Shown here in pieces: positions 13,937 to 51,001 of a stretch of 64,000 nt of DNA. The DNA lies in assembly GCF_036507355.1 (NCBI RefSeq), contig NZ_AP027877.1. The stretch is one strand, 5' to 3'. Below the pieces are notes generated by a model. The model ran no database searches, was not told the origin of the DNA, and saw only the letters and a program-made list of their open reading frames with translations. The position numbers were made by a program, and so were the translations under genes. The stretch comes from Escherichia coli (GTDB lineage: Bacteria; Pseudomonadota; Gammaproteobacteria; Enterobacterales; Enterobacteriaceae). Each line of letters opens with the position of its first letter. Position 1 is the first letter of the stretch.

Positions 13937-13960
13937 ATGCGCCAGGATGCAGAGGTAATC

Positions 13961-16360
13961 ATGAAGCTAACCGATGCGGATAATGCCGCCGATGGCATTT
14001 TTTTCCCCGCCCTTGAGCAAAATATGATGGGTGCGGTGTTAATTAACGAAAATGATGAAGTGATGTTTTTCAACCCCGCCGCAGAGAAGCTCTGGGGGTA
14101 CAAACGTGAAGAAGTCATTGGCAATAACATTGATATGCTGATTCCGCGGGATTTGCGTCCTGCGCATCCTGAATACATTCGTCACAACCGTGAAGGCGGT
14201 AAAGCGCGCGTCGAGGGGATGAGTCGGGAGCTGCAGCTGGAGAAAAAAGACGGCAGTAAAATCTGGACCCGTTTTGCGCTATCGAAAGTGAGCGACGAGG
14301 GGAAAGTTTATTACCTGGCGCTGGTACGGGATGCCAGCGTAGAAATGGCGCAAAAAGAACAGACCAGACAATTGATTATTGCCGTTGACCATCTCGACCG
14401 ACCGGTGATTGTCCTCGATCCGGAACGCCATATTGTGCAGTGCAATCGCGCATTTACCGAAATGTTTGGTTACTGCATTAGCGAAGCCAGCGGTATGCAG
14501 CCCGATACACTCCTGAACATTCCTGAATTCCCTGCCGATAACCGCATTCGTTTACAACAGTTGCTATGGAAAACCGCCCGCGATCAGGACGAATTTCTGC
14601 TGTTGACGCGCACCGGTGAAAAAATCTGGATTAAAGCCTCTATCAGCCCGGTTTATGACGTGCTCGCGCATCTGCAGAACCTGGTAATGACTTTCTCGGA
14701 TATCACCGAAGAACGGCAGATCCGCCAGCTTGAAGGCAATATTCTCGCCGCCATGTGCAGCAGCCCGCCATTTCATGAAATGGGGGAAATCATTTGTCGT
14801 AACATCGAATCTGTTCTCAACGAATCGCATGTTTCGCTGTTCGCACTGCGCAACGGGATGCCGATACACTGGGCGTCATCTTCGCACGGTGCAGAAGTTC
14901 AAAATGCGCAAAGCTGGTCAGCGACCATTCGTCAGCGTGATGGCGCGCCTGCGGGGATCCTGCAAATTAAAACCTCGTCAGGAGCAGAAACCAGCGCCTT
15001 TATCGAACGCGTGGCAGATATCAGCCAGCATATGGCCGCGCTGGCGCTGGAACAGGAAAAAAGCCGTCAGCATATTGAACAACTCATCCAATTTGATCCG
15101 ATGACCGGTCTGCCAAATCGCAATAACCTGCACAATTACCTCGATGACCTGATCGACAAAGCCGTCTCTCCGGTGGTGTATCTCATCGGTGTTGACCATA
15201 TTCAGGATGTGATTGATAGCCTTGGCTATGCGTGGGCCGATCAGGCATTGCTGGAAGTGGTCAATCGCTTTCGTGAAAAACTCAAACCGGATCAGTATCT
15301 CTGTCGTATCGAAGGTACGCAGTTTGTCCTCGTGAGCCTGGAAAACGACGTCAGTAACATTACCCAAATCGCCGATGAGCTACGGAATGTGGTCAGCAAG
15401 CCGATAATGATTGACGATAAACCCTTCCCGCTTACCTTGAGTATTGGCATCAGCTACGACGTGGGTAAAAACCGCGATTACCTGCTCTCCACTGCTCACA
15501 ATGCAATGGATTATATTCGCAAGAATGGGGGTAACGGCTGGCAGTTCTTCAGCCCGGCGATGAACGAAATGGTAAAAGAGCGTTTGGTTTTAGGCGCAGC
15601 GCTGAAAGAAGCGATTAGCAATAACCAACTGAAACTGGTTTACCAGCCGCAAATCTTCGCAGAAACGGGTGAACTCTACGGCATCGAAGCCCTTGCTCGC
15701 TGGCACGATCCCCAGCATGGTCATGTGCCCCCTTCACGGTTTATTCCTCTCGCAGAAGAGATTGGTGAAATCGAAAATATTGGGCGCTGGGTCATCGCGG
15801 AAGCTTGCCGTCAGTTAGCAGAATGGCGTAGCCAGAATATTCATATCCCGGCGTTATCCGTGAACTTGTCGGCGCTGCACTTTCGCAGTAATCAACTGCC
15901 TAATCAGGTGTCTGATGCAATGCAAGCCTGGGGTATTGACGGCCACCAGCTGACGGTGGAAATCACAGAAAGCATGATGATGGAACACGATACCGAAATC
16001 TTTAAGCGCATTCAGATCCTGCGTGATATGGGCGTGGGTTTATCGGTAGATGATTTTGGCACGGGCTTTTCCGGATTATCCCGCTTAGTCAGTCTTCCGG
16101 TAACGGAAATCAAAATTGACAAAAGTTTTGTCGATCGTTGTCTGACGGAAAAACGCATCCTTGCCTTACTTGAAGCCATTACCAGCATTGGGCAAAGCCT
16201 CAATTTAACCGTCGTGGCGGAAGGCGTCGAAACCAAAGAGCAATTTGAGATGCTACGTAAGATCCACTGTCGCGTTATTCAGGGATATTTCTTTTCCCGC
16301 CCCCTACCCGCCGAAGAAATTCCATGCTGGATGAGCAGCGTGTTACCGCTGAAAACCTGA
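13961..16360 (+). CDS. dosP: heme-PAS c-di-GMP phosphodiesterase DosP
   Basis: protein begins MKLTDADNAADGIFFPALEQ...; ATG at 13961; PAS domains, degenerate GGDEF and EAL domain; 799 aa; dosC stop lies 22 nt upstream (operon). Confidence 0.92.
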   Translation: MKLTDADNAADGIFFPALEQNMMGAVLINENDEVMFFNPAAEKLWGYKREEVIGNNIDMLIPRDLRPAHPEYIRHNREGGKARVEGMSRELQLEKKDGSKIWTRFALSKVSDEGKVYYLALVRDASVEMAQKEQTRQLIIAVDHLDRPVIVLDPERHIVQCNRAFTEMFGYCISEASGMQPDTLLNIPEFPADNRIRLQQLLWKTARDQDEFLLLTRTGEKIWIKASISPVYDVLAHLQNLVMTFSDITEERQIRQLEGNILAAMCSSPPFHEMGEIICRNIESVLNESHVSLFALRNGMPIHWASSSHGAEVQNAQSWSATIRQRDGAPAGILQIKTSSGAETSAFIERVADISQHMAALALEQEKSRQHIEQLIQFDPMTGLPNRNNLHNYLDDLIDKAVSPVVYLIGVDHIQDVIDSLGYAWADQALLEVVNRFREKLKPDQYLCRIEGTQFVLVSLENDVSNITQIADELRNVVSKPIMIDDKPFPLTLSIGISYDVGKNRDYLLSTAHNAMDYIRKNGGNGWQFFSPAMNEMVKERLVLGAALKEAISNNQLKLVYQPQIFAETGELYGIEALARWHDPQHGHVPPSRFIPLAEEIGEIENIGRWVIAEACRQLAEWRSQNIHIPALSVNLSALHFRSNQLPNQVSDAMQAWGIDGHQLTVEITESMMMEHDTEIFKRIQILRDMGVGLSVDDFGTGFSGLSRLVSLPVTEIKIDKSFVDRCLTEKRILALLEAITSIGQSLNLTVVAEGVETKEQFEMLRKIHCRVIQGYFFSRPLPAEEIPCWMSSVLPLKT

Positions 16361-16373
16361 CAAATTCCTCTCG

Positions 16374-16392
16374 CCCGCACTCGCGGGTTTTC
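16374..16392 (+). terminator. putative terminator after dosP
   Basis: short hairpin cccgc-actc-gcggg followed by ttttc. Confidence 0.4.
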
Positions 16393-16556
16393 ATTTAACG
16401 TGACACTGTCACTTAAATACTGTGATTTCAGCTACGATTCCGGGAGATTCCTTCCTTAACTTCCCCTCTTGCACCAAAACTGCACTACGCTGCACAAATG
16501 TTGATCAAAAGTTAAAAAATATAACTTTAAGCCAGCATTCTGGCGCTTATCCCGGC

Positions 16557-16574
16557 ATGGCATGAGATCTGCAT
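16557..16574 (+). promoter_or_regulatory. candidate sigma-54 (-24/-12) promoter upstream of ddpX
   Basis: tGGcatgagatctGCat: GG-N10-GC spacing, close to TGGCAC-N5-TTGCA consensus, about 45 bp upstream of the ddpX ATG. Confidence 0.35.
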
Positions 16575-16617
16575 AAGCGGAAAGCGCAGCAATTTTTGTC
16601 TTATACAGGAACCGTTT

Positions 16618-17199
16618 ATGTCGGATACCACCGAACTGGTTGATTTAGCCGTGATCTTCCCTGATCTGGAGATCGAATTGAAATACGCCTGCGCTGATAA
16701 CATCACAGGTAAAGCTATTTACCAGCAAGCGCGTTGTCTGTTACACAAGGATGCGATTACCGCGCTGGCGAAAAGTATCAGTATCGCCCAGCTATCAGGC
16801 TTACAACTGGTGATTTACGATGCGTATCGCCCACAACAAGCACAGGCGATGTTGTGGCAAGCCTGCCCAGACCCGCAATATGTTGTTGATGTGACGGTCG
16901 GTTCTAATCACAGCCGTGGCACGGCGATCGATCTGACGCTTCGTGATGAGCACGGGAACATCCTGGATATGGGCGCAGAGTTCGATGAAATGCACGAGCG
17001 CTCCCATGCCTATCACCCTTCCGTCCCGCCCGCCGCTCAGCGCAATCGGCTGTTGCTGAATGCGATTATGACTGGTGGCGGTTTTGTCGGTATCTCCAGC
17101 GAATGGTGGCACTTCGAATTACCCCAGGCAGCGAGTTACCCTCTGCTCGCTGATCAATTCACCTGTTTTATATCCCCTGGCACACAGCACGTCAGTTAA
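16618..17199 (+). CDS. ddpX: D-Ala-D-Ala dipeptidase (VanX homolog)
   Basis: 193-aa ORF with VanX-like zinc-ligand region (SNHSRGTAIDLT...EWWHFE); first gene of the ddp operon. Confidence 0.92.
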   Translation: MSDTTELVDLAVIFPDLEIELKYACADNITGKAIYQQARCLLHKDAITALAKSISIAQLSGLQLVIYDAYRPQQAQAMLWQACPDPQYVVDVTVGSNHSRGTAIDLTLRDEHGNILDMGAEFDEMHERSHAYHPSVPPAAQRNRLLLNAIMTGGGFVGISSEWWHFELPQAASYPLLADQFTCFISPGTQHVS

Positions 17200-17212: not shown

Positions 17213-18763
17213 ATGAAGAGATCGATATCGTTTCGTCCCACATTGCTCGCGCTCGTCCTTGCCACAACTTTCCCGGTTGCGCACGCCGCCGTACCGAAAG
17301 ATATGCTGGTGATCGGTAAAGCTGCCGATCCACAAACCCTCGACCCGGCAGTGACAATTGATAATAACGACTGGACGGTGACCTACCCGTCTTATCAGCG
17401 ACTGGTTCAGTACATAACGGACGGTGATAAAGGCTCAACCGACGTTGAAGGCGATCTGGCAAGTAGCTGGAAAGCGTCTGACGATCAAAAAGAGTGGACG
17501 TTCACCCTGAAGGACAATGCTAAATTTGCCGATGGCACACCGGTCACTGCCGAAGCAGTAAAACTCTCTTTTGAGCGGCTACTAAAAATCGGCCAGGGGC
17601 CAGCAGAAGCATTTCCCAAAGATTTAAAGATTGATGCTCCCGACGAACATACGGTGAAGTTTACCCTTAGCCAACCATTCGCACCGTTCCTCTACACGCT
17701 GGCGAATGACGGTGCATCCATTATCAATCCGGCGGTCTTAAAGGAACATGCAGCGGATGATGCTCGCGGCTTCCTCGCGCAAAATACCGCCGGTTCCGGA
17801 CCATTTATGCTGAAAAGCTGGCAAAAAGGTCAGCAATTAGTTCTGGTGCCAAATCCGCATTACCCAGGCAATAAACCGAACTTCAAACGGGTATCGGTAA
17901 AAATTATTGGTGAAAGTGCCTCCCGTCGCCTGCAGCTCTCCCGTGGCGACATTGACATTGCCGATGCGCTGCCGGTGGATCAACTCAACGCCCTGAAGCA
18001 GGAAAATAAAGTCAATGTGGCAGAGTATCCGTCACTGCGCGTCACCTATCTGTATCTGAATAACAGCAAAGCGCCTCTTAATCAGGCGGATCTGCGTCGG
18101 GCCATTTCCTGGTCTACCGATTATCAGGGCATGGTTAACGGCATTCTGAGTGGTAACGGAAAACAGATGCGCGGCCCGATTCCGGAAGGCATGTGGGGCT
18201 ACGATGCGACGGCAATGCAATACAACCATGACGAAACGAAAGCCAAAGCCGAATGGGATAAAGTGAAGAGCAAACCCACCAGCCTGACGTTTCTCTACTC
18301 CGATAACGATCCGAACTGGGAGCCTATTGCTCTGGCGACACAATCCAGTCTCAACAAGCTGGGCATCAATGTGAAGCTGGAAAAGCTGGCGAACGCCACC
18401 ATGCGCGACAGAGTGGGTAAAGGTGATTACGACATTGCGATTGGCAACTGGAGTCCGGATTTTGCCGACCCGTATATGTTTATGAATTACTGGTTTGAGT
18501 CAGACAAAAAAGGTCTGCCGGGTAACCGCTCGTTCTATGAAAACAGTGAGGTCGATAAGTTACTGCGCAATGCGCTCGCGACCACCGACCAGACGCAGCG
18601 TACCCGAGACTACCAGCAGGCACAGAAAATCGTCATTGATGACGCTGCTTATGTGTACCTGTTCCAGAAAAACTACCAACTGGCGATGAACAAAGAGGTG
18701 AAAGGCTTTGTGTTCAATCCCATGCTGGAACAGGTCTTCAATATCAATACCATGAGTAAATAA
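17213..18763 (+). CDS. ddpA: D,D-dipeptide ABC transporter periplasmic binding protein
   Basis: true start MKRSISFRPTLLALVLATTFPVAHA (signal peptide), ATG at 17213; family 5 solute-binding protein; 516 aa. Confidence 0.92.
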   Translation: MKRSISFRPTLLALVLATTFPVAHAAVPKDMLVIGKAADPQTLDPAVTIDNNDWTVTYPSYQRLVQYITDGDKGSTDVEGDLASSWKASDDQKEWTFTLKDNAKFADGTPVTAEAVKLSFERLLKIGQGPAEAFPKDLKIDAPDEHTVKFTLSQPFAPFLYTLANDGASIINPAVLKEHAADDARGFLAQNTAGSGPFMLKSWQKGQQLVLVPNPHYPGNKPNFKRVSVKIIGESASRRLQLSRGDIDIADALPVDQLNALKQENKVNVAEYPSLRVTYLYLNNSKAPLNQADLRRAISWSTDYQGMVNGILSGNGKQMRGPIPEGMWGYDATAMQYNHDETKAKAEWDKVKSKPTSLTFLYSDNDPNWEPIALATQSSLNKLGINVKLEKLANATMRDRVGKGDYDIAIGNWSPDFADPYMFMNYWFESDKKGLPGNRSFYENSEVDKLLRNALATTDQTQRTRDYQQAQKIVIDDAAYVYLFQKNYQLAMNKEVKGFVFNPMLEQVFNINTMSK

Positions 18764-18764
18764 C

Positions 18765-19787
18765 GTGACCTTCTGGAGTATTTTACGCCAACGCTGCTGG
18801 GGGCTGGTGCTCGTGGTGGCGGGCGTCTGCGTGATTACGTTTATTATCTCGCACCTGATCCCTGGCGATCCGGCGCGGTTACTGGCGGGTGACCGCGCCA
18901 GCGATGCTATCGTGGATAATATTCGCCAGCAACTGGGACTGGACCAGCCACTGTACGTACAGTTTTACCGCTACGTCAGCGACCTGTTTCAGGGTGACCT
19001 GGGAACATCCATTCGTACCGGGCGTCCGGTGCTGGAAGAGTTGCGCATATTTTTCCCGGCGACGCTGGAACTGGCTTTTTGTGCCCTGCTGCTGGCACTC
19101 CTGATTGGCATCCCACTGGGCATACTCTCTGCAGTATGGCGAAATCGCTGGCTGGATCATCTGGTGCGAATAATGGCCATTACCGGAATCTCCACACCTG
19201 CGTTCTGGCTTGGGCTGGGCGTCATTGTGCTGTTTTATGGTCATCTGCAAATTCTTCCCGGCGGCGGAAGGCTTGATGACTGGCTGGATCCGCCAACGCA
19301 CGTTACCGGCTTTTATCTGCTCGATGCGTTGCTTGAAGGCAACGGTGAAGTCTTCTTCAATGCGTTGCAACATCTCATCTTACCGGCATTAACGCTGGCG
19401 TTTGTTCACCTGGGGATTGTCGCCCGCCAGATCCGCTCAGCGATGCTGGAACAATTGAATGAAGACTACATTCGTACCGCCCGGGCCAGCGGCTTGCCCG
19501 GCTGGTATATCGTTCTATGTTATGCGCTACCCAATGCGTTGATCCCATCGATTACCGTATTGGGGCTGGCGCTGGGCGATTTGTTGTATGGCGCAGTGCT
19601 CACCGAAACCGTTTTTGCCTGGCCCGGAATGGGGGCATGGGTAGTGACATCAATACAGGCGCTCGACTTCCCGGCAGTGATGGGATTTGCCGTCGTGGTT
19701 TCGTTTGCTTATGTGCTGGTCAACCTGGTGGTGGATTTGCTCTATTTGTGGATTGATCCGCGTATCGGACGTGGAGGTGGTGAATGA
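18765..19787 (+). CDS. ddpB: D,D-dipeptide ABC transporter permease
   Basis: 340-aa membrane ORF, GTG start; DppB-type permease. Confidence 0.9.
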   Translation: MTFWSILRQRCWGLVLVVAGVCVITFIISHLIPGDPARLLAGDRASDAIVDNIRQQLGLDQPLYVQFYRYVSDLFQGDLGTSIRTGRPVLEELRIFFPATLELAFCALLLALLIGIPLGILSAVWRNRWLDHLVRIMAITGISTPAFWLGLGVIVLFYGHLQILPGGGRLDDWLDPPTHVTGFYLLDALLEGNGEVFFNALQHLILPALTLAFVHLGIVARQIRSAMLEQLNEDYIRTARASGLPGWYIVLCYALPNALIPSITVLGLALGDLLYGAVLTETVFAWPGMGAWVVTSIQALDFPAVMGFAVVVSFAYVLVNLVVDLLYLWIDPRIGRGGGE

Positions 19788-20680
19788 TGCTAAGCGAGGA
19801 AACGTCCGCCGTACGCCCACAAAAACAAACGCGATTTAACGGTGCAAAACTGGTATGGATGCTGAAAGGCAGTCCGCTCACCGTGACCGGCGCAGTCATC
19901 ATTGTATTAATGCTATTGATGATGATTTTTTCACCGTGGCTTGCGACGCATGATCCCAACGCCATTGATTTAACCGCCCGCCTTTTGCCGCCTTCTGCGG
20001 CGCACTGGTTTGGCACCGATGAAGTGGGACGCGATCTGTTTAGCCGCGTACTGGTCGGCAGTCAGCAATCAATTCTCGCCGGATTAGTGGTGGTCGCCAT
20101 TGCGGGTATGATTGGTTCGCTACTCGGATGTCTATCCGGTGTGCTTGGCGGACGCGCAGACGCCATCATCATGCGCATCATGGACATTATGCTGTCGATT
20201 CCTTCGTTGGTACTGACAATGGCACTGGCTGCTGCTCTCGGGCCGAGTTTATTTAACGCCATGCTGGCGATTGCTATTGTGCGAATTCCCTTTTATGTGC
20301 GCCTGGCGCGGGGGCAAGCATTAGTTGTACGCCAGTATACCTATGTTCAGGCGGCGAAAACCTTTGGCGCGTCTCGTTGGCATCTGATCAGCTGGCATAT
20401 TTTACGTAACTCCCTGCCGCCGCTGATCGTGCAGGCATCGCTGGATATCGGTAGCGCGATTTTAATGGCCGCCACGTTGGGATTTATTGGCTTGGGTGCT
20501 CAACAACCGAGTGCTGAATGGGGCGCGATGGTAGCAAATGGTCGCAACTATGTACTCGATCAGTGGTGGTATTGCGCATTTCCGGGGGCAGCGATTTTGC
20601 TTACCGCCGTCGGGTTTAATCTCTTTGGTGATGGTATTCGCGATCTGCTTGACCCGAAAGCAGGAGGAAAGCAGTCATGA
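19784..20680 (+). CDS. ddpC: D,D-dipeptide ABC transporter permease
   Basis: 298-aa membrane ORF overlapping ddpB stop by 4 nt; DppC-type permease. Confidence 0.9.
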   Translation: MMLSEETSAVRPQKQTRFNGAKLVWMLKGSPLTVTGAVIIVLMLLMMIFSPWLATHDPNAIDLTARLLPPSAAHWFGTDEVGRDLFSRVLVGSQQSILAGLVVVAIAGMIGSLLGCLSGVLGGRADAIIMRIMDIMLSIPSLVLTMALAAALGPSLFNAMLAIAIVRIPFYVRLARGQALVVRQYTYVQAAKTFGASRWHLISWHILRNSLPPLIVQASLDIGSAILMAATLGFIGLGAQQPSAEWGAMVANGRNYVLDQWWYCAFPGAAILLTAVGFNLFGDGIRDLLDPKAGGKQS

Positions 20681-21663
20681 CCCAACCCGTTCTGGACATT
20701 CAACAACTGCATTTGAGTTTCCCCGGTTTTAACGGTGATGTTCACGCGCTCAACAATGTGTCCTTGCAGATTAACCGCGGTGAAATTGTCGGTCTGGTGG
20801 GAGAATCCGGCTCAGGTAAATCAGTCACCGCAATGCTGATTATGCGTCTGCTACCGACGGGCAGTTATTGCGTACATCGGGGGCAGATTTCCCTGCTGGG
20901 AGACGATGTTCTTAACGCGCGGGAAAAACAGCTTCGTCAGTGGCGCGGCGCACGAGTGGCGATGATCTTTCAGGAACCGATGACCGCCCTCAATCCGACA
21001 CGTCGAATAGGTCTTCAGATGATGGACGTGATCCGCCATCATCAACCAATAAGTCGTCGGGAAGCCAGAGCTAAAGCGATTACCCTGCTGGAAGAGATGC
21101 AAATCCCGGATGCCGTGGAAGTTATGTCGCGCTATCCGTTTGAGCTTTCAGGTGGTATGCGCCAGCGGGTAATGATTGCGCTGGCATTCTCCTGCGAGCC
21201 GCAATTGATTATTGCCGACGAACCGACTACGGCGCTGGACGTCACGGTACAGTTGCAGGTACTGCGTTTGCTTAAACATAAAGCCCGCGCCAGTGGAACT
21301 GCGGTACTGTTCATCAGCCATGATATGGCCGTGGTGTCGCAACTGTGCGATAGCGTTTACGTGATGTATGCCGGAAGCGTAATTGAAAGCGGCGTGACGG
21401 CAGACGTTATCCATCATCCCCGGCATCCGTATACCATTGGTTTGCTGCAATGCGCACCAGAACATGGAGTACCACGCCAGCCATTACCCGCCATTCCAGG
21501 GACGGTACCAAACCTCACCCATTTGCCTGACGGCTGCGCTTTTCGCGATCGTTGCTATGCGGCAGGTGCACAGTGTGAAAACGTCCCGGCGCTGACAGCG
21601 TGTGGTGACAACAACCAGCGCTGCGCCTGTTGGTATCCGCAGCAGGAGGTCATAAGTGTCTGA
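20677..21663 (+). CDS. ddpD: D,D-dipeptide ABC transporter ATPase
   Basis: Walker A GESGSGKS, signature LSGGMRQR. Confidence 0.9.
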   Translation: MTQPVLDIQQLHLSFPGFNGDVHALNNVSLQINRGEIVGLVGESGSGKSVTAMLIMRLLPTGSYCVHRGQISLLGDDVLNAREKQLRQWRGARVAMIFQEPMTALNPTRRIGLQMMDVIRHHQPISRREARAKAITLLEEMQIPDAVEVMSRYPFELSGGMRQRVMIALAFSCEPQLIIADEPTTALDVTVQLQVLRLLKHKARASGTAVLFISHDMAVVSQLCDSVYVMYAGSVIESGVTADVIHHPRHPYTIGLLQCAPEHGVPRQPLPAIPGTVPNLTHLPDGCAFRDRCYAAGAQCENVPALTACGDNNQRCACWYPQQEVISV

Positions 21664-22582
21664 CACGTTATTAACGTTACGCGACGTCCATATCAATTTC
21701 CCGGTCCGTAAAAACTGGCTTGGTAAAACTACGGAACATGTTCATGCGATTAATGGTATTGATTTACAGATCCGCCGTGGTGAAACCTTAGGGATCGTCG
21801 GCGAGTCAGGCTGCGGCAAAAGCACCCTCGCACAGCTTTTAATGGGTATGCTGCAACCGAGCCACGGGCAGTACATCCGTTCTGGCTCACAACGCATTAT
21901 GCAGATGGTGTTTCAGGACCCGCTCTCTTCGCTCAATCCGCGCTTACCGGTGTGGCGCATCATCACAGAACCGCTCTGGATAGCTAAGCATAGTAGTGAA
22001 CAACAGCGGCGAGCGTTGGCAGAGGAGCTGGCTGTGCAGGTGGGTATTCGTCCGGAGTATCTCGACCGCCTGTCTCATGCGTTCTCCGGCGGGCAGCGGC
22101 AACGCATCGCCATTGCCAGAGCACTCTCTTCGCAGCCTGACGTGATTGTGCTTGATGAGCCAACCTCTGCGCTGGATATCTCCGTGCAGGCGCAGATCCT
22201 CAATTTACTGGTAACGCTACAGGAAAATCACGGGCTGACTTATGTGCTGATTTCACACAATGTCTCGGTGATATGTCATATGAGCGATCGGGTGGCGGTG
22301 ATGTATCTCGGGCAGATTGTAGAACTGGGCGACGCGCAGCAGGTGCTGACGGCACCTGCACATCCATACACCCGATTATTGCTGGATTCCCTCCCCGCCA
22401 TTAATAAACCGCTGGAGGAAGAATGGGCATTACGTAAAACGGATCTGCCGGGAAACCGCACGTTGCCGCAAGGCTGTTTTTTCCGCGAACGTTGCCCCCT
22501 TGCAACCAGCGGATGCGAAGTCCGGCAATCATTAACGACGCGGGCTGACGGACGTGAGATCCGTTGCTGGCGGGCGCTGTAG
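21656..22582 (+). CDS. ddpF: D,D-dipeptide ABC transporter ATPase
   Basis: Walker A GESGCGKS, signature FSGGQRQR; GTG start overlapping ddpD. Confidence 0.9.
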   Translation: MSDTLLTLRDVHINFPVRKNWLGKTTEHVHAINGIDLQIRRGETLGIVGESGCGKSTLAQLLMGMLQPSHGQYIRSGSQRIMQMVFQDPLSSLNPRLPVWRIITEPLWIAKHSSEQQRRALAEELAVQVGIRPEYLDRLSHAFSGGQRQRIAIARALSSQPDVIVLDEPTSALDISVQAQILNLLVTLQENHGLTYVLISHNVSVICHMSDRVAVMYLGQIVELGDAQQVLTAPAHPYTRLLLDSLPAINKPLEEEWALRKTDLPGNRTLPQGCFFRERCPLATSGCEVRQSLTTRADGREIRCWRAL

Positions 22583-22618
22583 GACGCGGCATCCGGCTAT
22601 TGCATGTCTGCGGAAACG

Positions 22619-23509
22619 TTATGCGTCATAGGTTTTTTTTAACGTTTCCATCAACGCCTGCGCCGCAGTAGAAAGCTTATGGTGTGACGAACGCAGTACG
22701 CCTACTCGTCGCTCAATCACTGGATTATCCAGTTCCAGACACACTGCGCCCAGTTCGCTCATCTGCCTGCGGCACAGCGCAGGCACAGCGCTTCCTCCCA
22801 AACCGTTTGCCACCAGCCGCCCAACCGTAACCAGTTGATGGCTTTCCAGCGCCACTTCCAGTTGCGTTCCACTTTGTGCCAACTGCTCCTCCAGCATCAA
22901 CCTGACGGCTGACGGTCGCTGGAGGGTGATAAAATCGAGCGTCAGCAAATCCCGCCAACTCACGCGTTGCCGATTTGCCAGTCGTGAATCTGCTGGAACA
23001 ATAGCGACAAACCGATCCACGCCCAGTGGGGTAAAATGCACATGGCCGCAATAGTCAGGTTCAAAGGCAATACCCATCTCCACACGCCCTTCGCTCACCA
23101 TTTCGATCACCTGCTCATTCACCACATCGTGCACGGTGACATTAATCCCTGAATAACAATCGCGGAAGGTTTTCAGCACCGGAGGCAGAACGTTGGCTGC
23201 AAATGACGGCATCGCTGCCACCGAGACTTTGCCCCGCCTGAGCGTGAATCGCTGACGCATGGCCTCCTCAGTGTTATCCCAGTCAGCCAGCAAAGGCCGT
23301 GCCATCGACAATAGCGTTTCCCCCTCCTGGGTTAATGTCACTTTTCGCGTAGTACGCAGCAGTAAAGCGCCCCCTAAGGCATCTTCCAGTCCTTTAATGG
23401 CAAGACTTAGCGCAGGCTGCGACATATTCAGCCGTTCACTGGCATGGGCAAAGTTCAGAGTGTGAGCTACCGCTAAAAACGCGCGTAACTGTTTGATGCT
23501 CATTTTCAT
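22619..23509 (-). CDS. LysR-family transcriptional regulator, divergent from catabolic operon
   Basis: 296-aa ORF; N-terminal HTH (KQLRAFLAVAHTLNFAHASERLNMSQPALSLAIKGLE) and LysR substrate-binding region. Confidence 0.85.
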   Translation of the reverse strand: MKMSIKQLRAFLAVAHTLNFAHASERLNMSQPALSLAIKGLEDALGGALLLRTTRKVTLTQEGETLLSMARPLLADWDNTEEAMRQRFTLRRGKVSVAAMPSFAANVLPPVLKTFRDCYSGINVTVHDVVNEQVIEMVSEGRVEMGIAFEPDYCGHVHFTPLGVDRFVAIVPADSRLANRQRVSWRDLLTLDFITLQRPSAVRLMLEEQLAQSGTQLEVALESHQLVTVGRLVANGLGGSAVPALCRRQMSELGAVCLELDNPVIERRVGVLRSSHHKLSTAAQALMETLKKTYDA

Positions 23510-23650
23510 CTGGCACTCCGTTAACCTACTGAATACATTTAATTAACATTATATTGATAAATAATACAAATGAATGAGTCACAAATTTAAAATTAACAAA
23601 TCATTTTTTGCCCTTAATGATGTTGAAAAGGACAACTGGAGGGCAACTGT

Positions 23651-24358
23651 ATGGCTGGGTTGGATAAACGGGTCGCTACGTATCACGAGGCGCTTGAAGG
23701 ACTTACCAATGAGATGACGATTCTGGCAGGAGGTTTTGGCCTGTGCGGCATCCCGGAGAATCTGATTGCTGAAGTTCGCCACCGTGGAGTAACCGGATTA
23801 ACGGTGGTTTCCAATAACTGTGGCGTAGATGGTTTTGGACTGGGTGTACTACTGGAAAGCCGACAGATCCGTAAAGTCGTCGCTTCTTATGTTGGCGAGA
23901 ATGCTTTGTTTGAAAAACAGGTGCTTAACGGCGAACTGGAGGCGATTCTCACACCACAAGGAACCCTGGCAGAACAACTGCGCGCAGGCGGCGCGGGTAT
24001 CCCGGCGTTCTTTACTGCCACCGGTTACGGTACTCCCGTTGCCGAAGGGAAAGAAGTCCGCGAATTCAACGGTCGCCCGTACATCATGGAACAGGCTATC
24101 ACCGGTGATTTTGCCCTGGTCAAAGGCTGGAAAGCCGACTGGTACGGCAACGTGATTTATCGTCATACCGCGCAAAACTTCAACCCACTGATGGCGGCTG
24201 CCGGAAAAATCACCGTGGTGGAAGTGGAAGAAATAGTGCCACCTGGTGAACTAGATCCTGCCGCTATCCATACCCCGGGGATTTTTGTTAATCGCGTCAT
24301 TCAGGGGCAATTTGAAAAACGCATTGAACAACGCACCCTTAGCCGCAAAGGAGCCTGA
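23651..24358 (+). CDS. 3-oxoacid CoA-transferase subunit A (AtoD/ScoA-like)
   Basis: 235-aa ORF with CoA-transferase A-subunit signatures ([18 protein letters not shown]). Confidence 0.85.
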
Positions 24359-24360
24359 CC

Positions 24361-25017
24361 ATGTTAACCCGTGAACAAATGGCGATGCGAGTCGCCCGCG
24401 AATTGCGCGATGGCTATTACGTCAATCTCGGAATTGGTATCCCGACCCTGGTGGCAAACTACATTCCTGACGGGATGGATGTGATGTTGCAGTCAGAAAA
24501 CGGTTTGCTGGGAATGGGCGCATTTCCTACGGAAGACGAACTGGACGCCGACATGATTAATGCCGGTAAACAAACCGTTACCGCGCGGAAAGGCGCGGCA
24601 ATTTTCGATTCGGCGCAATCATTCGCCATGATCCGTGGCGGTCATGTGGATCTGACTGTACTTGGCGCATTTGAAGTGGATGTGAATGGCAACATTGCCT
24701 CATGGATGATCCCCGGCAAGATGGTTAAAGGCATGGGCGGTGCCATGGATCTGGTTGCCGGTGCCGAGAATATTATTGTGGTAATGACCCACGCCTCGAA
24801 ATCCGGCGAATCCAAACTGCTTCCTGACTGTACCCTTCCGTTGACCGGCGCCGGATGCATCAAACGCGTCTTAACCGACCTTGCTCTGCTGGAAATTGCT
24901 GACGGAGTTTTCATTCTGCGCGAGCGCGCGCCGGGAATCAGCGTTGCGGAAATCATCGCCAAAACCGCCGGTAAGTTGTTTGTGCCGGAACATGTCCCGG
25001 AAATGCAATTCAACTGA
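24361..25017 (+). CDS. 3-oxoacid CoA-transferase subunit B (AtoA/ScoB-like)
   Basis: 218-aa ORF; conserved SENG motif region (MLQSENGLLGMG) of B-subunits. Confidence 0.85.
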   Translation: MLTREQMAMRVARELRDGYYVNLGIGIPTLVANYIPDGMDVMLQSENGLLGMGAFPTEDELDADMINAGKQTVTARKGAAIFDSAQSFAMIRGGHVDLTVLGAFEVDVNGNIASWMIPGKMVKGMGGAMDLVAGAENIIVVMTHASKSGESKLLPDCTLPLTGAGCIKRVLTDLALLEIADGVFILRERAPGISVAEIIAKTAGKLFVPEHVPEMQFN

Positions 25018-25026
25018 GGAATCACG

Positions 25027-26232
25027 ATGCAGGACGTTGTTATTGTTGCCGCTACGCGCACGCCGATTGGCTGTTTTCATGGCGCTCTCGCCCCACTTTC
25101 TGCGGTTGATCTCGGTGCTGCCACCATTCGTTCGTTGCTGGAGAAAACAGCACTTGCAGCAGAACAGATCGACGAAGTGATTTTTGGTCAGGTCCTGATC
25201 GCCGGAAGCGGACAAAACCCGGCACGACAATCGGCGCTCAAAGCCGGGTTAAGCCACAATACACCCGCCGTTACCATCAACCTGGTATGTGGTTCCGGTC
25301 TGAAAGCCGTACACCAGGCAGTGCAGGCGATCCGTTGCGGTGATGCACAGATAATTATCGCAGGTGGCCAGGAAAGCATGAGCAACGCGCCCTATTTTAT
25401 TGATGGCGCACGGGCAGGTTTACGCCTCGGGCATACCAGCATGAAAGACAGCGTGGTGCATGACGGACTATGGGACGCTTTCAATGATTACCACATGGGC
25501 ATTACTGCAGAAAACCTGGCGCAAAAATATGCCATCAGTCGCGAGCGACAGGACACATTCGCGCTACGTTCTCAGCAAAAAGCCGCTGCCGCAATGGAAG
25601 CCGGGCGCTTTGCAGACGAAATTACTCCGGTCAGCGTACCACAAGGTAAAAAACCACCACGCAGGGTAAATACCGACGAACAACCACGTTCCGGGACGCA
25701 ACTGGAAAAACTAGCACAACTGAAACCGGCCTTTCTTCCGGGGGCGGGAAGCGTCACCGCAGGAAATGCTTCTTCCATCAATGATGGTGCCGCCGCAGTC
25801 ATGTTAATGCGTGCCAGCAAAGCTGCCGAACTTGGCCTCCCAGTGCTGGCTCGGGTGGCTGGTTATGCCGTTTCTGGCGTCGATCCTGCCTTTATGGGCA
25901 TTGGTCCGGTCGCCGCTACCCGCGAATGTCTTAAGCGTTGCGGATGGACGCTGGAAGATATTGATCTTATTGAAGCCAACGAGGCTTTCGCAGCGCAGGC
26001 GCTGGCTGTTGGCGACGAACTGAACTGGGATTGCGACAAAGTGAATGTTAACGGCGGCGCAATCGCACTTGGGCATCCTATTGGCGCTTCCGGTTGCCGC
26101 ATTCTGGTCACTCTCATTTATGAAATGGCGCGACGTAATGCGCAAAAAGGGCTGGCGACGCTGTGCGTCGGTGGCGGTCAGGGCGTGGCGCTGACACTGG
26201 AAAGAACCACAGGAGAACACCATGCAAACTGA
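25027..26232 (+). CDS. acetyl-CoA C-acetyltransferase (thiolase II)
   Basis: 401-aa ORF; thiolase motifs ([10 protein letters not shown] active-site Cys region; C-terminal CVGGGQGVA). Confidence 0.9.
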
Positions 26233-27145
26233 ACAATTTGCGGTACTGGGCGCCGGATTGATGGGCGTGGGGATTGCCACTCATTTCGCCCGCTTTGGTC
26301 ATGATATCTGGCTGTACGATACCGAGCAGAGCCGGATTGCAGAAATCCACGTAGTTGCAGGCGGAATTCTTGATGAGCTGATTAGCTGCGAACAGTTTAC
26401 TGCCCCGGAAAAAGAGAATGTGCTTAAACGTCTGCACGGCACGACTTCTCTTGCAGACATCGCCGACTCGCAACTACTGATTGAGGCGATCCCGGAGCGA
26501 CTTGAACTAAAACACGCATTATATACCGAGCTTGAAACGCTTATTTCTCCTGAGGCCATTGTCGCCAGCAATACCAGCGGTCTGCCGCCCGATGATCTGG
26601 CCGCGAAGATGCGCTACCCGCAACGACTGCTGATCGCCCATTTCTGGCATCCGCCGCACTTCATTCCACTCGTGGAGATTATCCCCGGCAGCGTTACCGA
26701 GCCAAAGCATTTGCACTGGCTGCAACACTTGCTTGTGTCACTGCAACTGGAAGCAGTGTTGCTGGATCGCGCTGCGCCAGGATTTGTCGGCAACCGTCTG
26801 CAATTTGCACTGTTGCGTGAAGCCCTGCATATCGTAAAAAGCGGCATCGCCAGTGCAGAAGTGGTGGATCAGGTGATGCGCGCCTCGCTTGGGCGACGTT
26901 ATGCCATGGTCGGCCCGCTGGAGGCCGCCGACATGACCGGACTTTCGACGGTGCAGGATATTTGTCGCCATCTGCTCCCTGAACTAGCGACTGGCAGCGA
27001 CATGATGTCATTAGTTGCCGAAAAAGTGGAACGTGGAGACATCGGCGTACGTAGCGGTCAGGGATTTTACTGCTGGGATGAATCGCGGAAGCAGTACATC
27101 CAGCAGCGTCGGGAACATCAACTTCGCTTCGCCCTTAAACCATAA
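26222..27145 (+). CDS. 3-hydroxyacyl-CoA dehydrogenase family protein
   Basis: 307-aa ORF; N-terminal Rossmann GxGxxG (LGAGLMGVG); overlaps thiolase stop. Confidence 0.8.
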
Positions 27146-48700: not shown

Positions 48701-49460
48701 TCGCTTTCGCGATATTCAGGCGCAGCCGCGTAAAATTATCTCCAGCCCCACATGGTCCGGTCTGGAAAGCGATCACGTATCCTATAACGCGGGATACACC
48801 AACGTTCATGAGTTAATTCCGTGGCGCACGCTGTCGGGACGCCAGCAGCTCTATCAGGATCATCCGTGGATACGTGCTTTTGGTGAAAGCCTGGTGGCTT
48901 ATCGCCCGCCTATCGACACCCGTAGCGTCAGTGAGATGCGCCAGATCCCGCCAAACGGCTTCCCGGAAAAAGCACTTAACTTCCTGACGCCGCACCAGAA
49001 ATGGGGCATTCACTCAACCTACAGTGAAAACCTGCTAATGCTGACACTCTCTCGCGGTGGACCGATTGTCTGGATCAGCGAAACAGATGCCCGAGAATTG
49101 ACCATTGTCGATAACGACTGGGTGGAAGTGTTTAACGCCAACGGCGCGCTGACTGCCCGCGCGGTGGTCAGCCAACGTGTACCGCCGGGTATGACCATGA
49201 TGTATCACGCTCAGGAACGCATTATGAATATTCCTGGTTCGGAAGTAACTGGCATGCGCGGCGGTATTCATAACTCGGTCACCCGCGTTTGTCCGAAACC
49301 AACGCATATGATTGGCGGTTACGCACAGCTGGCCTGGGGCTTTAACTACTACGGCACCGTCGGCTCGAACCGCGACGAATTCATCATGATCCGCAAGATG
49401 AAGAACGTTAACTGGCTGGATGATGAAGGTCGCGATCAGGTACAGGAGGCGAAAAAATGA
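45720..49460 (+). CDS. narZ: respiratory nitrate reductase Z alpha subunit
   Basis: 1246-aa protein MSKLLDRFRYFKQKGETFADGHGQ...; Mo-bisMGD catalytic subunit; ORF-track start at 45597 is an extension. Confidence 0.95.
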   Translation: MSKLLDRFRYFKQKGETFADGHGQVMHSNRDWEDSYRQRWQFDKIVRSTHGVNCTGSCSWKIYVKNGLVTWEIQQTDYPRTRPDLPNHEPRGCPRGASYSWYLYSANRLKYPLIRKRLIELWREALKQHSDPVLAWASIMNDPQKCLSYKQVRGRGGFIRSNWQELNQLIAAANVWTIKTYGPDRVAGFSPIPAMSMVSYAAGTRYLSLLGGTCLSFYDWYCDLPPASPMTWGEQTDVPESADWYNSSYIIAWGSNVPQTRTPDAHFFTEVRYKGTKTIAITPDYSEVAKLCDQWLAPKQGTDSALAMAMGHVILKEFHLNNPSDYFINYCRRYSDMPMLVMLEPRDDGSYVPGRMIRASDLVDGLGESNNPQWKTVAVNTAGELVVPNGSIGFRWGEKGKWNLESIAAGKETELSLTLLGQHDAVAGVAFPYFGGIENPHFRSVKHNPVLVRQLPVKNLTLADGSTCPVVSVYDLVLANYGLDRGLEDENSAKDYAEIKPYTPAWGEQITGVPRQYIETIAREFADTAHKTHGRSMIILGAGVNHWYHMDMNYRGMINMLIFCGCVGQSGGGWAHYVGQEKLRPQTGWLPLAFALDWNRPPRQMNSTSFFYNHSSQWRYEKVSAQELLSPLADASKYSGHLIDFNVRAERMGWLPSAPQLGRNPLGIKAEADKAGLSPTEFTAQALKSGDLRMACEQPDSGSNHPRNLFVWRSNLLGSSGKGHEYMQKYLLGTESGIQGEELGASDGLKPEEVEWQTAAIEGKLDLLVTLDFRMSSTCLFSDIVLPTATWYEKDDMNTSDMHPFIHPLSAAVDPAWESRSDWEIYKGITKAFSQVCVGHLGKETDVVLQPLLHDSPAELSQPCEVLDWRKGECDLIPGKTAPNIVAVERDYPATYERFTSLGPLMDKLGNGGKGISWNTQDEIDFLGKLNYTKRDGPAQGRPLIDTAIDASEVILALAPETNGHVAVKAWQALGEITGREHTHLALHKEDEKIRFRDIQAQPRKIISSPTWSGLESDHVSYNAGYTNVHELIPWRTLSGRQQLYQDHPWIRAFGESLVAYRPPIDTRSVSEMRQIPPNGFPEKALNFLTPHQKWGIHSTYSENLLMLTLSRGGPIVWISETDARELTIVDNDWVEVFNANGALTARAVVSQRVPPGMTMMYHAQERIMNIPGSEVTGMRGGIHNSVTRVCPKPTHMIGGYAQLAWGFNYYGTVGSNRDEFIMIRKMKNVNWLDDEGRDQVQEAKK

Positions 49461-51001
49461 AAATCCGTTCGCAAGTCGGCATGGTGCTTAATCTCGATAA
49501 ATGTATCGGCTGCCATACCTGTTCGGTGACCTGTAAAAACGTCTGGACCGGACGCGAAGGCATGGAGTACGCATGGTTTAACAACGTCGAAACCAAACCG
49601 GGCATTGGTTATCCGAAAAACTGGGAAGATCAGGAAGAGTGGCAAGGCGGCTGGGTCCGCGATGTGAATGGCAAGATACGCCCGCGTCTGGGCAGCAAGA
49701 TGGGCGTAATAACCAAAATCTTCGCCAACCCGGTGGTACCGCAGATTGATGATTACTACGAACCTTTCACCTTCGACTACGAACATTTGCATAGCGCACC
49801 GGAAGGCAAACATATCCCTACTGCTCGCCCGCGTTCGCTGATTGACGGTAAGCGGATGGACAAAGTGATCTGGGGGCCAAACTGGGAAGAACTGCTGGGC
49901 GGCGAGTTTGAAAAACGTGCCCGCGACCGCAACTTCGAGGCCATGCAAAAGGAGATGTACGGGCAGTTTGAAAACACCTTCATGATGTACCTGCCGCGCC
50001 TGTGCGAACACTGCCTCAATCCCAGCTGCGTGGCGACCTGCCCAAGCGGCGCTATCTACAAACGCGAAGAAGACGGCATTGTGCTGATTGATCAGGATAA
50101 ATGCCGTGGCTGGCGTTTGTGCATTAGCGGTTGTCCGTACAAAAAAATCTACTTCAACTGGAAAAGCGGCAAGTCAGAAAAATGTATCTTCTGTTACCCA
50201 CGAATTGAGTCCGGTCAACCGACCGTGTGCTCAGAAACCTGCGTGGGTCGCATCCGGTATCTGGGCGTGCTGCTTTACGACGCCGACCGCATCGAGGAAG
50301 CGGCGAGCACCGAGCGCGAAGTTGACCTCTATGAACGCCAGTGCGAAGTGTTCCTCGATCCACACGATCCCTCAGTGATCGAGGAAGCCCTGAAACAAGG
50401 TATTCCACAAAATGTGATTGACGCTGCCCAGCGTTCGCCAGTCTACAAAATGGCGATGGACTGGAAACTGGCACTACCGTTGCACCCTGAATACCGCACC
50501 CTGCCGATGGTCTGGTACGTTCCTCCGCTGTCACCGATTCAGTCCTACGCAGATGCGGGCGGTTTGCCGAAAAGCGAAGGCGTGCTGCCCGCCATCGAAA
50601 GCCTGCGTATTCCGGTGCAATATCTCGCCAATATGTTGAGTGCCGGCGATACCGGTCCGGTACTGCGGGCGCTGAAACGGATGATGGCGATGCGCCACTA
50701 TATGCGTTCACAAACCGTGGAAGGCGTTACTGATACCCGTGCCATCGACGAAGTAGGCCTGAGCGTCGCCCAGGTCGAAGAAATGTATCGCTATCTCGCC
50801 ATTGCCAACTATGAAGATCGTTTTGTTATCCCGACCAGCCATCGGGAAATGGCGGGCGATGCCTTCGCAGAACGCAACGGCTGCGGTTTTACCTTTGGCG
50901 ACGGTTGCCACGGTTCGGACAGTAAATTCAACCTGTTCAACAGTAGCCGTATCGATGCCATCAACATCACCGAAGTGCGCGACAAAGCGGAGGGCGAATA
51001 A
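49457..51001 (+). CDS. narY: nitrate reductase Z beta subunit (Fe-S)
   Basis: 514-aa ORF with multiple Cys clusters (CIGCHTCSVTC, CEHCLNPSCVATCPSGA, etc.). Confidence 0.95.
   Translation: MKIRSQVGMVLNLDKCIGCHTCSVTCKNVWTGREGMEYAWFNNVETKPGIGYPKNWEDQEEWQGGWVRDVNGKIRPRLGSKMGVITKIFANPVVPQIDDYYEPFTFDYEHLHSAPEGKHIPTARPRSLIDGKRMDKVIWGPNWEELLGGEFEKRARDRNFEAMQKEMYGQFENTFMMYLPRLCEHCLNPSCVATCPSGAIYKREEDGIVLIDQDKCRGWRLCISGCPYKKIYFNWKSGKSEKCIFCYPRIESGQPTVCSETCVGRIRYLGVLLYDADRIEEAASTEREVDLYERQCEVFLDPHDPSVIEEALKQGIPQNVIDAAQRSPVYKMAMDWKLALPLHPEYRTLPMVWYVPPLSPIQSYADAGGLPKSEGVLPAIESLRIPVQYLANMLSAGDTGPVLRALKRMMAMRHYMRSQTVEGVTDTRAIDEVGLSVAQVEEMYRYLAIANYEDRFVIPTSHREMAGDAFAERNGCGFTFGDGCHGSDSKFNLFNSSRIDAINITEVRDKAEGE

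Follow-up and report, generated by a model that had tools for sequence, protein, structure and literature searches.

Sigma-54 promoter ddpXp of the Escherichia coli ddpXABCDF operon and its probable descent from a regulator-containing operon of Enterobacterales

Is the short element that lies between dosP and ddpX in this Escherichia coli genome the promoter of the ddp operon, or does it resemble a sigma-54 (RpoN) site only by chance? The window, by which we mean the whole stretch of 64,000 nt that was analysed, carries the sequence ATGGCATGAGATCTGCAT at positions 16557-16574. A preliminary description had read this sequence as tGGcat-N5-cTGCat with GG-N10-GC spacing, about 45 bp before ddpX, and had proposed an NtrC/sigma-54 promoter for a nitrogen-regulated ddp operon. 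We come to the same reading and consider, with a probability of about 0.93, that this element is ddpXp, the sigma-54 promoter from which E. coli transcribes ddpXABCDF. It should be noted that ddpXp is already a published nitrogen-starvation (sigma-54/NtrC) promoter and that its identification is not new. Added here are the conservation of promoter and enhancer far beyond Escherichia and the observation that the NtrC sites of E. coli are unusually degenerate half-site arrays, while the proposal of an ancestral regulator-ddp operon with loss of the regulator in Escherichia is a modest point that is possibly new.

The motif is present as described. TGGCAT (16558-16563) and CTGCAT (16569-16574) are separated by the five nucleotides GAGAT, and exactly 10 nt lie between the GG at -24/-25 (16559-16560) and the GC at -12/-13 (16571-16572), which is the spacing of sigma-54 promoters. 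The 17-mer at 16557-16573 reads ATGGCATGAGATCTGCA, and 43 nt separate the end of the motif from the ddpX ATG (16618), in good agreement with the distance first given. The features of the region are listed in Table 1.

Table 1 Features of the dosP-ddp region, with positions in the window.
Feature	Position	Strand	Basis and remarks
dosP ORF	13937-16360	+	ORF list and RefSeq annotation
dosP intrinsic terminator, GC-rich hairpin and T-run	16373..16395	+	terminator scan; stem 16373-16388, tail TTTCATTTAA
Putative NtrC site I, TGCACCAAAACTGCACT	16470..16486	+	centre ~-106; 8/13 consensus positions; left half perfect, right half degenerate
Putative NtrC site II, TGCACAAATGTTGATCA	16491..16507	+	centre ~-85; 9/13 consensus positions
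A/T-rich spacer (AAAGTTAAAAAATATAACTTTAAGCC...) between enhancer and promoter	16508..16556	+	sequence; not conserved between genera
Sigma-54 (-24/-12) promoter element ATGGCATGAGATCTGCAT	16557-16574	+	sequence; dosP-ddpX intergenic region
Predicted transcription start (+1, within 2 nt)	16584	+	rule: 12 nt past the C of GC
ddpX Shine-Dalgarno region ACAGGAA	16606..16612	+	sequence
ddpX, D-Ala-D-Ala dipeptidase, 193 aa, first gene of the operon	16618-17199	+	Pfam PF01427 (Peptidase_M15) E = 2e-79; RefSeq annotation of identical DNA
ddpA	17213-18763	+	ORF matched to RefSeq annotation of ATCC 8739
ddpB	18765-19787	+	ORF matched to RefSeq annotation of ATCC 8739
ddpC	19784-20680	+	ORF matched to RefSeq annotation of ATCC 8739
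ddpD	20677-21663	+	ORF matched to RefSeq annotation of ATCC 8739
ddpF	21656-22582	+	ORF matched to RefSeq annotation of ATCC 8739

The motif was scored at several levels of stringency. The bare GG-N10-GC pattern is uninformative, with 604 matches in the 64-kb window against 538 expected. The stricter pattern TGGCAY-N5-YTGCW has three matches in the window against 0.38 expected, and three or more were obtained in none of 100 shuffles. A position-specific scoring matrix (PSSM), built from the 41 other ChIP-verified intergenic sense sites of Bonocora et al. with ddpX left out, gave the ddpX site 15.87 bits, which is comparable to the verified sites (training-site median 16.13) and ranks third among the ~128,000 positions of the window. 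Since 0.7 sites per shuffled 64-kb window of the same composition are expected by chance at the 15.87-bit level, the motif alone is only suggestive and not significant window-wide. What makes it more than a chance match is its conservation together with its place: it is intergenic, correctly oriented and downstream of a terminator, with a leader of ~34 nt, in front of the first gene of an operon.

The immediate surroundings were examined further. The dosP terminator insulates ddpX from dosCP read-through. No sigma-70-like promoter was detected by the promoter scan in 16300-16700, and no family was matched by the Rfam scan of the dosP-ddpX intergenic region. By the spacing rule of Table 1, transcription would start at about 16584; the predicted leader of 34 nt (16618 minus 16584) equals the "Distance 34" given for ddpX by Bonocora et al. 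No mapped 5' end for ddpX was found in the literature searched. The genes ddpA-ddpB-ddpC-ddpD-ddpF (17213..22582, +) encode an ABC dipeptide transporter and are co-transcribed with ddpX.

The proposed control by NtrC and sigma-54 is supported by published ChIP-seq, gel-shift and induction experiments as well as by our comparative analysis. In the sigma-54 ChIP-seq of Bonocora 2015 (PMC4591121, Table 1), site OS16 is ATGGCATGAGATCTGCA, on the minus strand and assigned to b1488 ddpX, with a fold-above-threshold score of 10 and a distance of 34, and published ChIP-seq places sigma-54 on the ddpX element in non-starved cells. Zhao 2010 (PMC2831329, Table 2) listed the putative ddpX promoter ggcaTGGCATGAGATCTGCATAagcg at -60..-43 of ddpX, and reported that ddpX expression rises 2.7-fold when sigma-54 is overexpressed and drops 2.1-fold when rpoN is deleted. 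In nitrogen-starved cells, ddpXABCDF is NtrC ChIP-seq peak 6, at 24-fold (Brown 2014, PMC4066584). Furthermore, the ddpX site was recovered by genomic SELEX (gSELEX) with RpoN holoenzyme, and a ddpX probe was gel-shifted by either NtrC or RpoN holoenzyme and, in a ternary complex, by the two combined (Shimada 2021, PMC8743547). The same study reported induction upon nitrogen depletion of 104.5-fold for ddpX mRNA and 2.2-fold for ddpF; its RT-qPCR compared the wild type with mutants in rpoN and in ntrC, and both proteins were concluded to be needed for activation. The sigma-54 promoter set of RegulonDB includes ddpX, and a Xylella paper cites ddpX as nitrogen-induced with a potential sigma-54 promoter. 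Occupancy by sigma-54 and by NtrC, in vitro binding of both and the 104-fold induction are therefore established by the cited papers. The induction of ddpF was only 2.2-fold, and ddpXp therefore controls the operon unevenly; the difference between 104.5-fold for ddpX and 2.2-fold for ddpF points to strong polarity or to internal transcription within the operon. An "internal promoter" between ddpA and ddpB, recovered by gSELEX with RpoD holoenzyme, is on record in the literature.

Two further PSSM matches in the window lie within genes. The top match, CTGGCACTACCGTTGCA at 17.0 bits (50468-50484, +), is in the narY ORF (49457-51001) and coincides exactly with IS19, which has been published as a weak sigma-54 ChIP-seq site inside narY and lies 517 nt upstream of narW. 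The match ATGGCACGGCCTTTGCT (23289-23305, -) scores 16.7 bits and lies in the sense direction ~205 nt into a LysR-family ORF (22619-23509, -). K-12 does not have this LysR gene, so ATGGCACGGCCTTTGCT falls outside the coverage of the K-12 studies. No sigma-54 match of at least 11 bits was found at the position of ATGGCACGGCCTTTGCT in the Citrobacter LysR orthologue, and ATGGCACGGCCTTTGCT, inside a gene, is probably either fortuitous or non-productive. The LysR gene belongs to a set of genes that follows ddpF at ~22600-27000, comprising the LysR regulator (-), CoA-transferase subunits A and B, and an acetyl-CoA acetyltransferase. This LysR/CoA-transferase island is present in 230 of 5426 complete E. 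coli genomes, while in K-12-like strains osmC directly follows ddpF. The island looks ancestral rather than acquired, since the same gene order is found after ddpF in Citrobacter youngae.

Within E. coli, the 61-nt promoter region is present in 4274 of 5426 complete genomes, 3201 of which are identical over the region. The single-base variants that we inspected fall just outside TGGCAT-N5-CTGCAT and leave the core unchanged. About 1150 of the 5426 genomes do not have the whole ddpXABCDF operon, nor its promoter and enhancer; in an APEC O1:K1:H7 strain, for example, osmC directly follows dosP. In operon-less genomes, similarity to the window ends ~79 nt past the dosP stop codon (~16439), just upstream of the enhancer.

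Conservation extends to other genera. A scan of a genome collection with DdpX yielded 80 loci, from Citrobacter, Enterobacter, Raoultella, Serratia, Pantoea, Mixta, Brenneria, Erwinia and others, and 1500 nt upstream of each were searched for sigma-54 sites at a threshold of 13 bits. On the plus strand, 69 of the 80 loci have a site that reaches 13 bits or more, and its position hardly varies; on the minus strand the number is 10 of 80. These locus counts overstate the number of independent events because the 69 loci are phylogenetically related. The 72 orthologous promoters represent 37 distinct 17-mers; TGGCA and TGC show next to no variation among them, the spacer varies freely, and GG..GC is kept in 36 of the 37. 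Upstream NtrC-box matches of at least 11/13 positions occur in 11 of the 69 loci versus none of 345 control segments, examples being TGCACCTTCTTTGTGCA in Raoultella and TGCACCGATTTTGTGCA in L050. Judged from the sequences compared, the cross-genus pattern is that of a functional sigma-54/NtrC promoter. An earlier scan of only 300 nt upstream had made the promoter look specific to Escherichia. This result was an artefact, ruled out by the 1500-nt scan: the shorter scan was misleading because a regulator gene separates the promoter from ddpX in other genera.

In Citrobacter youngae, the gene immediately before ddpX (L086 8120-8986) encodes a 288-aa regulator of the RpiR/MurR family, and upstream of it lie TTGCACCAAAACTGAACTACGCTGCACAAATGTTGATCA and then ATGGCACGCGTCCTGCA, the latter scoring 16.3 bits. 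The regulator has a Pfam HTH_6 match, and NCBIfam likens it to SapR with a score of 374 bits, under the 500-bit cutoff. An ORF for a ~288-aa regulator follows the sigma-54 site in 64 of the 69 loci and ends 12-20 nt before ddpX; equivalent ORFs lie at ~520-1490 in most of L004-L081. The gene is absent, and the promoter stands directly before ddpX, in Escherichia (the window, L002 and L003) and in the metagenome-assembled genome (MAG) L037. In Escherichia the promoter thus abuts ddpX because the regulator gene is missing: ~27 nt stand in place of ~920 nt in Citrobacter, and homology to Citrobacter resumes at ~16602, the junction of the lost gene. No remnant of the regulator gene was found in the window by tblastn. 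The simplest reading is that a ~0.9-kb deletion in the Escherichia lineage removed the regulator gene.

The Enterobacterales MAG L037 (bin_230) is a second case of a promoter fused directly to ddpX. Its ddpX homologue (1330-1503, 67% identity) appears monocistronic, with the downstream neighbour on the opposite strand; CTGGCACAGACGCTGCA lies 39 nt before the ATG of this homologue, with the conserved block CACCAAAATGGGTAGCGCTGCACATTTGTTGAT upstream.

Taken together, these comparisons make it reasonably probable that ddpXp was originally the sigma-54/NtrC promoter of a seven-gene operon widespread in Enterobacterales, consisting of the RpiR/MurR-family, SapR-like regulator gene and ddpXABCDF, that the ~0.9-kb deletion in Escherichia fused this promoter to ddpX, and that the fusion in L037 may have been independent. 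The literature searched, a limited collection, yielded no paper linking ddpX with an RpiR/MurR-type regulator.

The region upstream of the promoter was searched for an NtrC enhancer, with a divided outcome. The canonical palindrome TGCACC-N4-TGGTGCA was not found upstream of ddpX in E. coli with three or fewer mismatches, and a check by hand for the refined NtrC core GCAnnAnnnTnnTGC (Shimada 2021) near ddpX gave partial matches only. The degenerate sites I and II of Table 1 are present, with their centres 21 bp (two helical turns) apart. In addition, same-strand TGCAC pentamers start at 16470, 16481 and 16491 and form the only such cluster of three in the 64-kb window. Control DNA often reaches 8-9/13 matches to the NtrC box, and the assignment of sites I and II to NtrC therefore rests on the published binding and on the cross-genus comparison; NtrC would bind within 16470-16507. 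NtrC-box-like sequences lie 85-150 nt upstream, degenerate in E. coli and near-consensus in Raoultella, and boxes of 10-12/13 stand at the same relative place in the promoters of Raoultella, Pantoea and Serratia. Site I falls within a 47-nt block that is 93.6% identical to Citrobacter, while the flanking DNA does not align. The block CGCTGCACA..TGTTGAT is invariant among E. coli, Escherichia sp. E1V33 and L037. The local alignment of the CGCTGCACA block at site II was beaten by 1 of 1000 shuffles, and the block is conserved also in Citrobacter and Enterobacter.

Two candidates in this region were considered separately. The A/T-rich spacer might possibly provide an intrinsic bend or a weak IHF site that aids looping. 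The IHF consensus (WATCAANNNNTTR), compared by hand with 16497-16530, has two mismatches on the plus strand and no match on the minus strand, and was rejected as evidence. The sequence CTTGCACCAAAACTGCA (16468-16484, +) overlaps putative site I and scores 12.9 bits with the sigma-54 PSSM despite TG in place of GG; it might be one reason why the ddpX probe of Shimada et al. gave multiple bands with RpoN holoenzyme.

The evidence above bears on three other explanations. Sigma-54 holoenzyme could bind the site non-productively, as it does at many intragenic sites, with ddp transcribed from elsewhere. Binding sites are indeed not necessarily promoters (Bonocora et al., PMC4591121), the two equally good motifs of the window (narY 50468; LysR ORF 23289) are intragenic, and the chance rate of 0.7 per window applies to this motif as well. 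However, the ddpX element lies between genes, in the right orientation and 34 nt ahead of the first gene; expression depends on rpoN and is induced 104-fold by nitrogen depletion; NtrC binds; the core keeps its position in dozens of genera; and no alternative promoter is recognisable. We therefore give a non-productive site almost no credence. A real sigma-54 promoter could also have a main activator other than NtrC, or the upstream block could be the operator of the RpiR/MurR-type regulator. This idea draws on the poor NtrC boxes of E. coli (none within three mismatches, the best at 8-9/13) and on the most conserved block, which precedes the regulator gene in other genera and could be an autoregulatory operator. 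It is opposed by the NtrC ChIP-seq peak and gel shift on the ddpX promoter, by an induction of ddpX that follows nitrogen depletion, by the boxes of 10-12/13 that occupy the corresponding position in Raoultella, Pantoea and Serratia, and by the retention of the block in E. coli despite loss of the regulator, and we consider it very improbable.

Alternatively, ddpX may be expressed mainly in stationary phase from a sigma-S or sigma-70 promoter in the same intergenic region, with the sigma-54 element secondary. Lessard et al. are said to have described, in 1998, RpoS-dependent stationary-phase expression of ddpX. An array study of E. coli O157:H7 places ddpXA among the RpoS-dependent genes, and another input therefore exists; nevertheless, the same table names RpoN and NtrC as known regulators, and 16300-16700 contains no sigma-70-type hexamer pair. 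The RpoS dependence may be indirect, because the stationary phase that was assayed overlaps with nutrient exhaustion, and the 104-fold nitrogen induction makes sigma-54 the dominant input where tested. A chiefly stationary-phase promoter thus has a small chance of being correct, and a sigma-54/NtrC promoter remains by far the preferred reading.

On this preferred reading, ddpXp would operate as follows. Sigma-54 holoenzyme would form a stable closed complex on the -24 GG and -12 GC of 16557-16574. Under nitrogen limitation, phosphorylated NtrC (GlnG) would bind the enhancer at about -85 to -115. This enhancer would be made up of a pair of degenerate 17-bp boxes spaced 21 bp apart, in both of which a TGCAC(C/A) half-site matches well. 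NtrC would then oligomerise, loop over the A/T-rich spacer and open the promoter using ATP. Transcripts would start near 16584 with a 34-nt leader, and the products, a D-Ala-D-Ala dipeptidase and a dipeptide ABC importer, would serve to scavenge cell-wall-derived D-Ala-D-Ala for nitrogen and carbon. The weak NtrC boxes suggest that activation may occur only at high NtrC-P.

The ddp operon is a standard member of the nitrogen-scavenging regulon of E. coli, and its promoter is already catalogued; the present case illustrates that a real sigma-54 promoter can be recognised from raw sequence. If the ancestral operon is as proposed, E. coli shed a probable substrate-specific control, perhaps one sensing a cell-wall-derived ligand, and kept nitrogen control alone. 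That ddp in E. coli seems to be governed by nitrogen alone could be due to loss of the regulator, which also offers a simple natural experiment on the rewiring of an operon.

Compared with known systems, the element is the same as ddpXp of K-12 (ddpXABCDF, b1488-b1483; RegulonDB, Bonocora 2015, Zhao 2010, Shimada 2021). Over the 280 nt that run from the dosP stop codon into ddpX, the window and K-12 MG1655 share 100% identity. The window strain has no promoter difference from K-12 and differs downstream only, by the LysR/CoA-transferase/thiolase island after ddpF. The promoter resembles glnAp2 in its -24/-12 element, in an NtrC enhancer ~100 nt upstream and in its activation by nitrogen limitation. 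In glnAp2 the enhancer consists of two palindromic NtrC boxes close to consensus, at about -140 and -108, whereas ddpXp has only degenerate boxes (8-9/13) at ~-106 and ~-85. This difference suggests that ddpXp may have low affinity and, as is the case for other Ntr scavenging operons, may fire only when NtrC-P is high. The promoters of the regulator-ddpXABCDF operons in Citrobacter, Enterobacter, Raoultella, Serratia, Pantoea and further genera have a homologous enhancer block and the same sigma-54 core as ddpXp, but in these operons the ~288-aa regulator gene lies between promoter and ddpX, whereas Escherichia lacks it.
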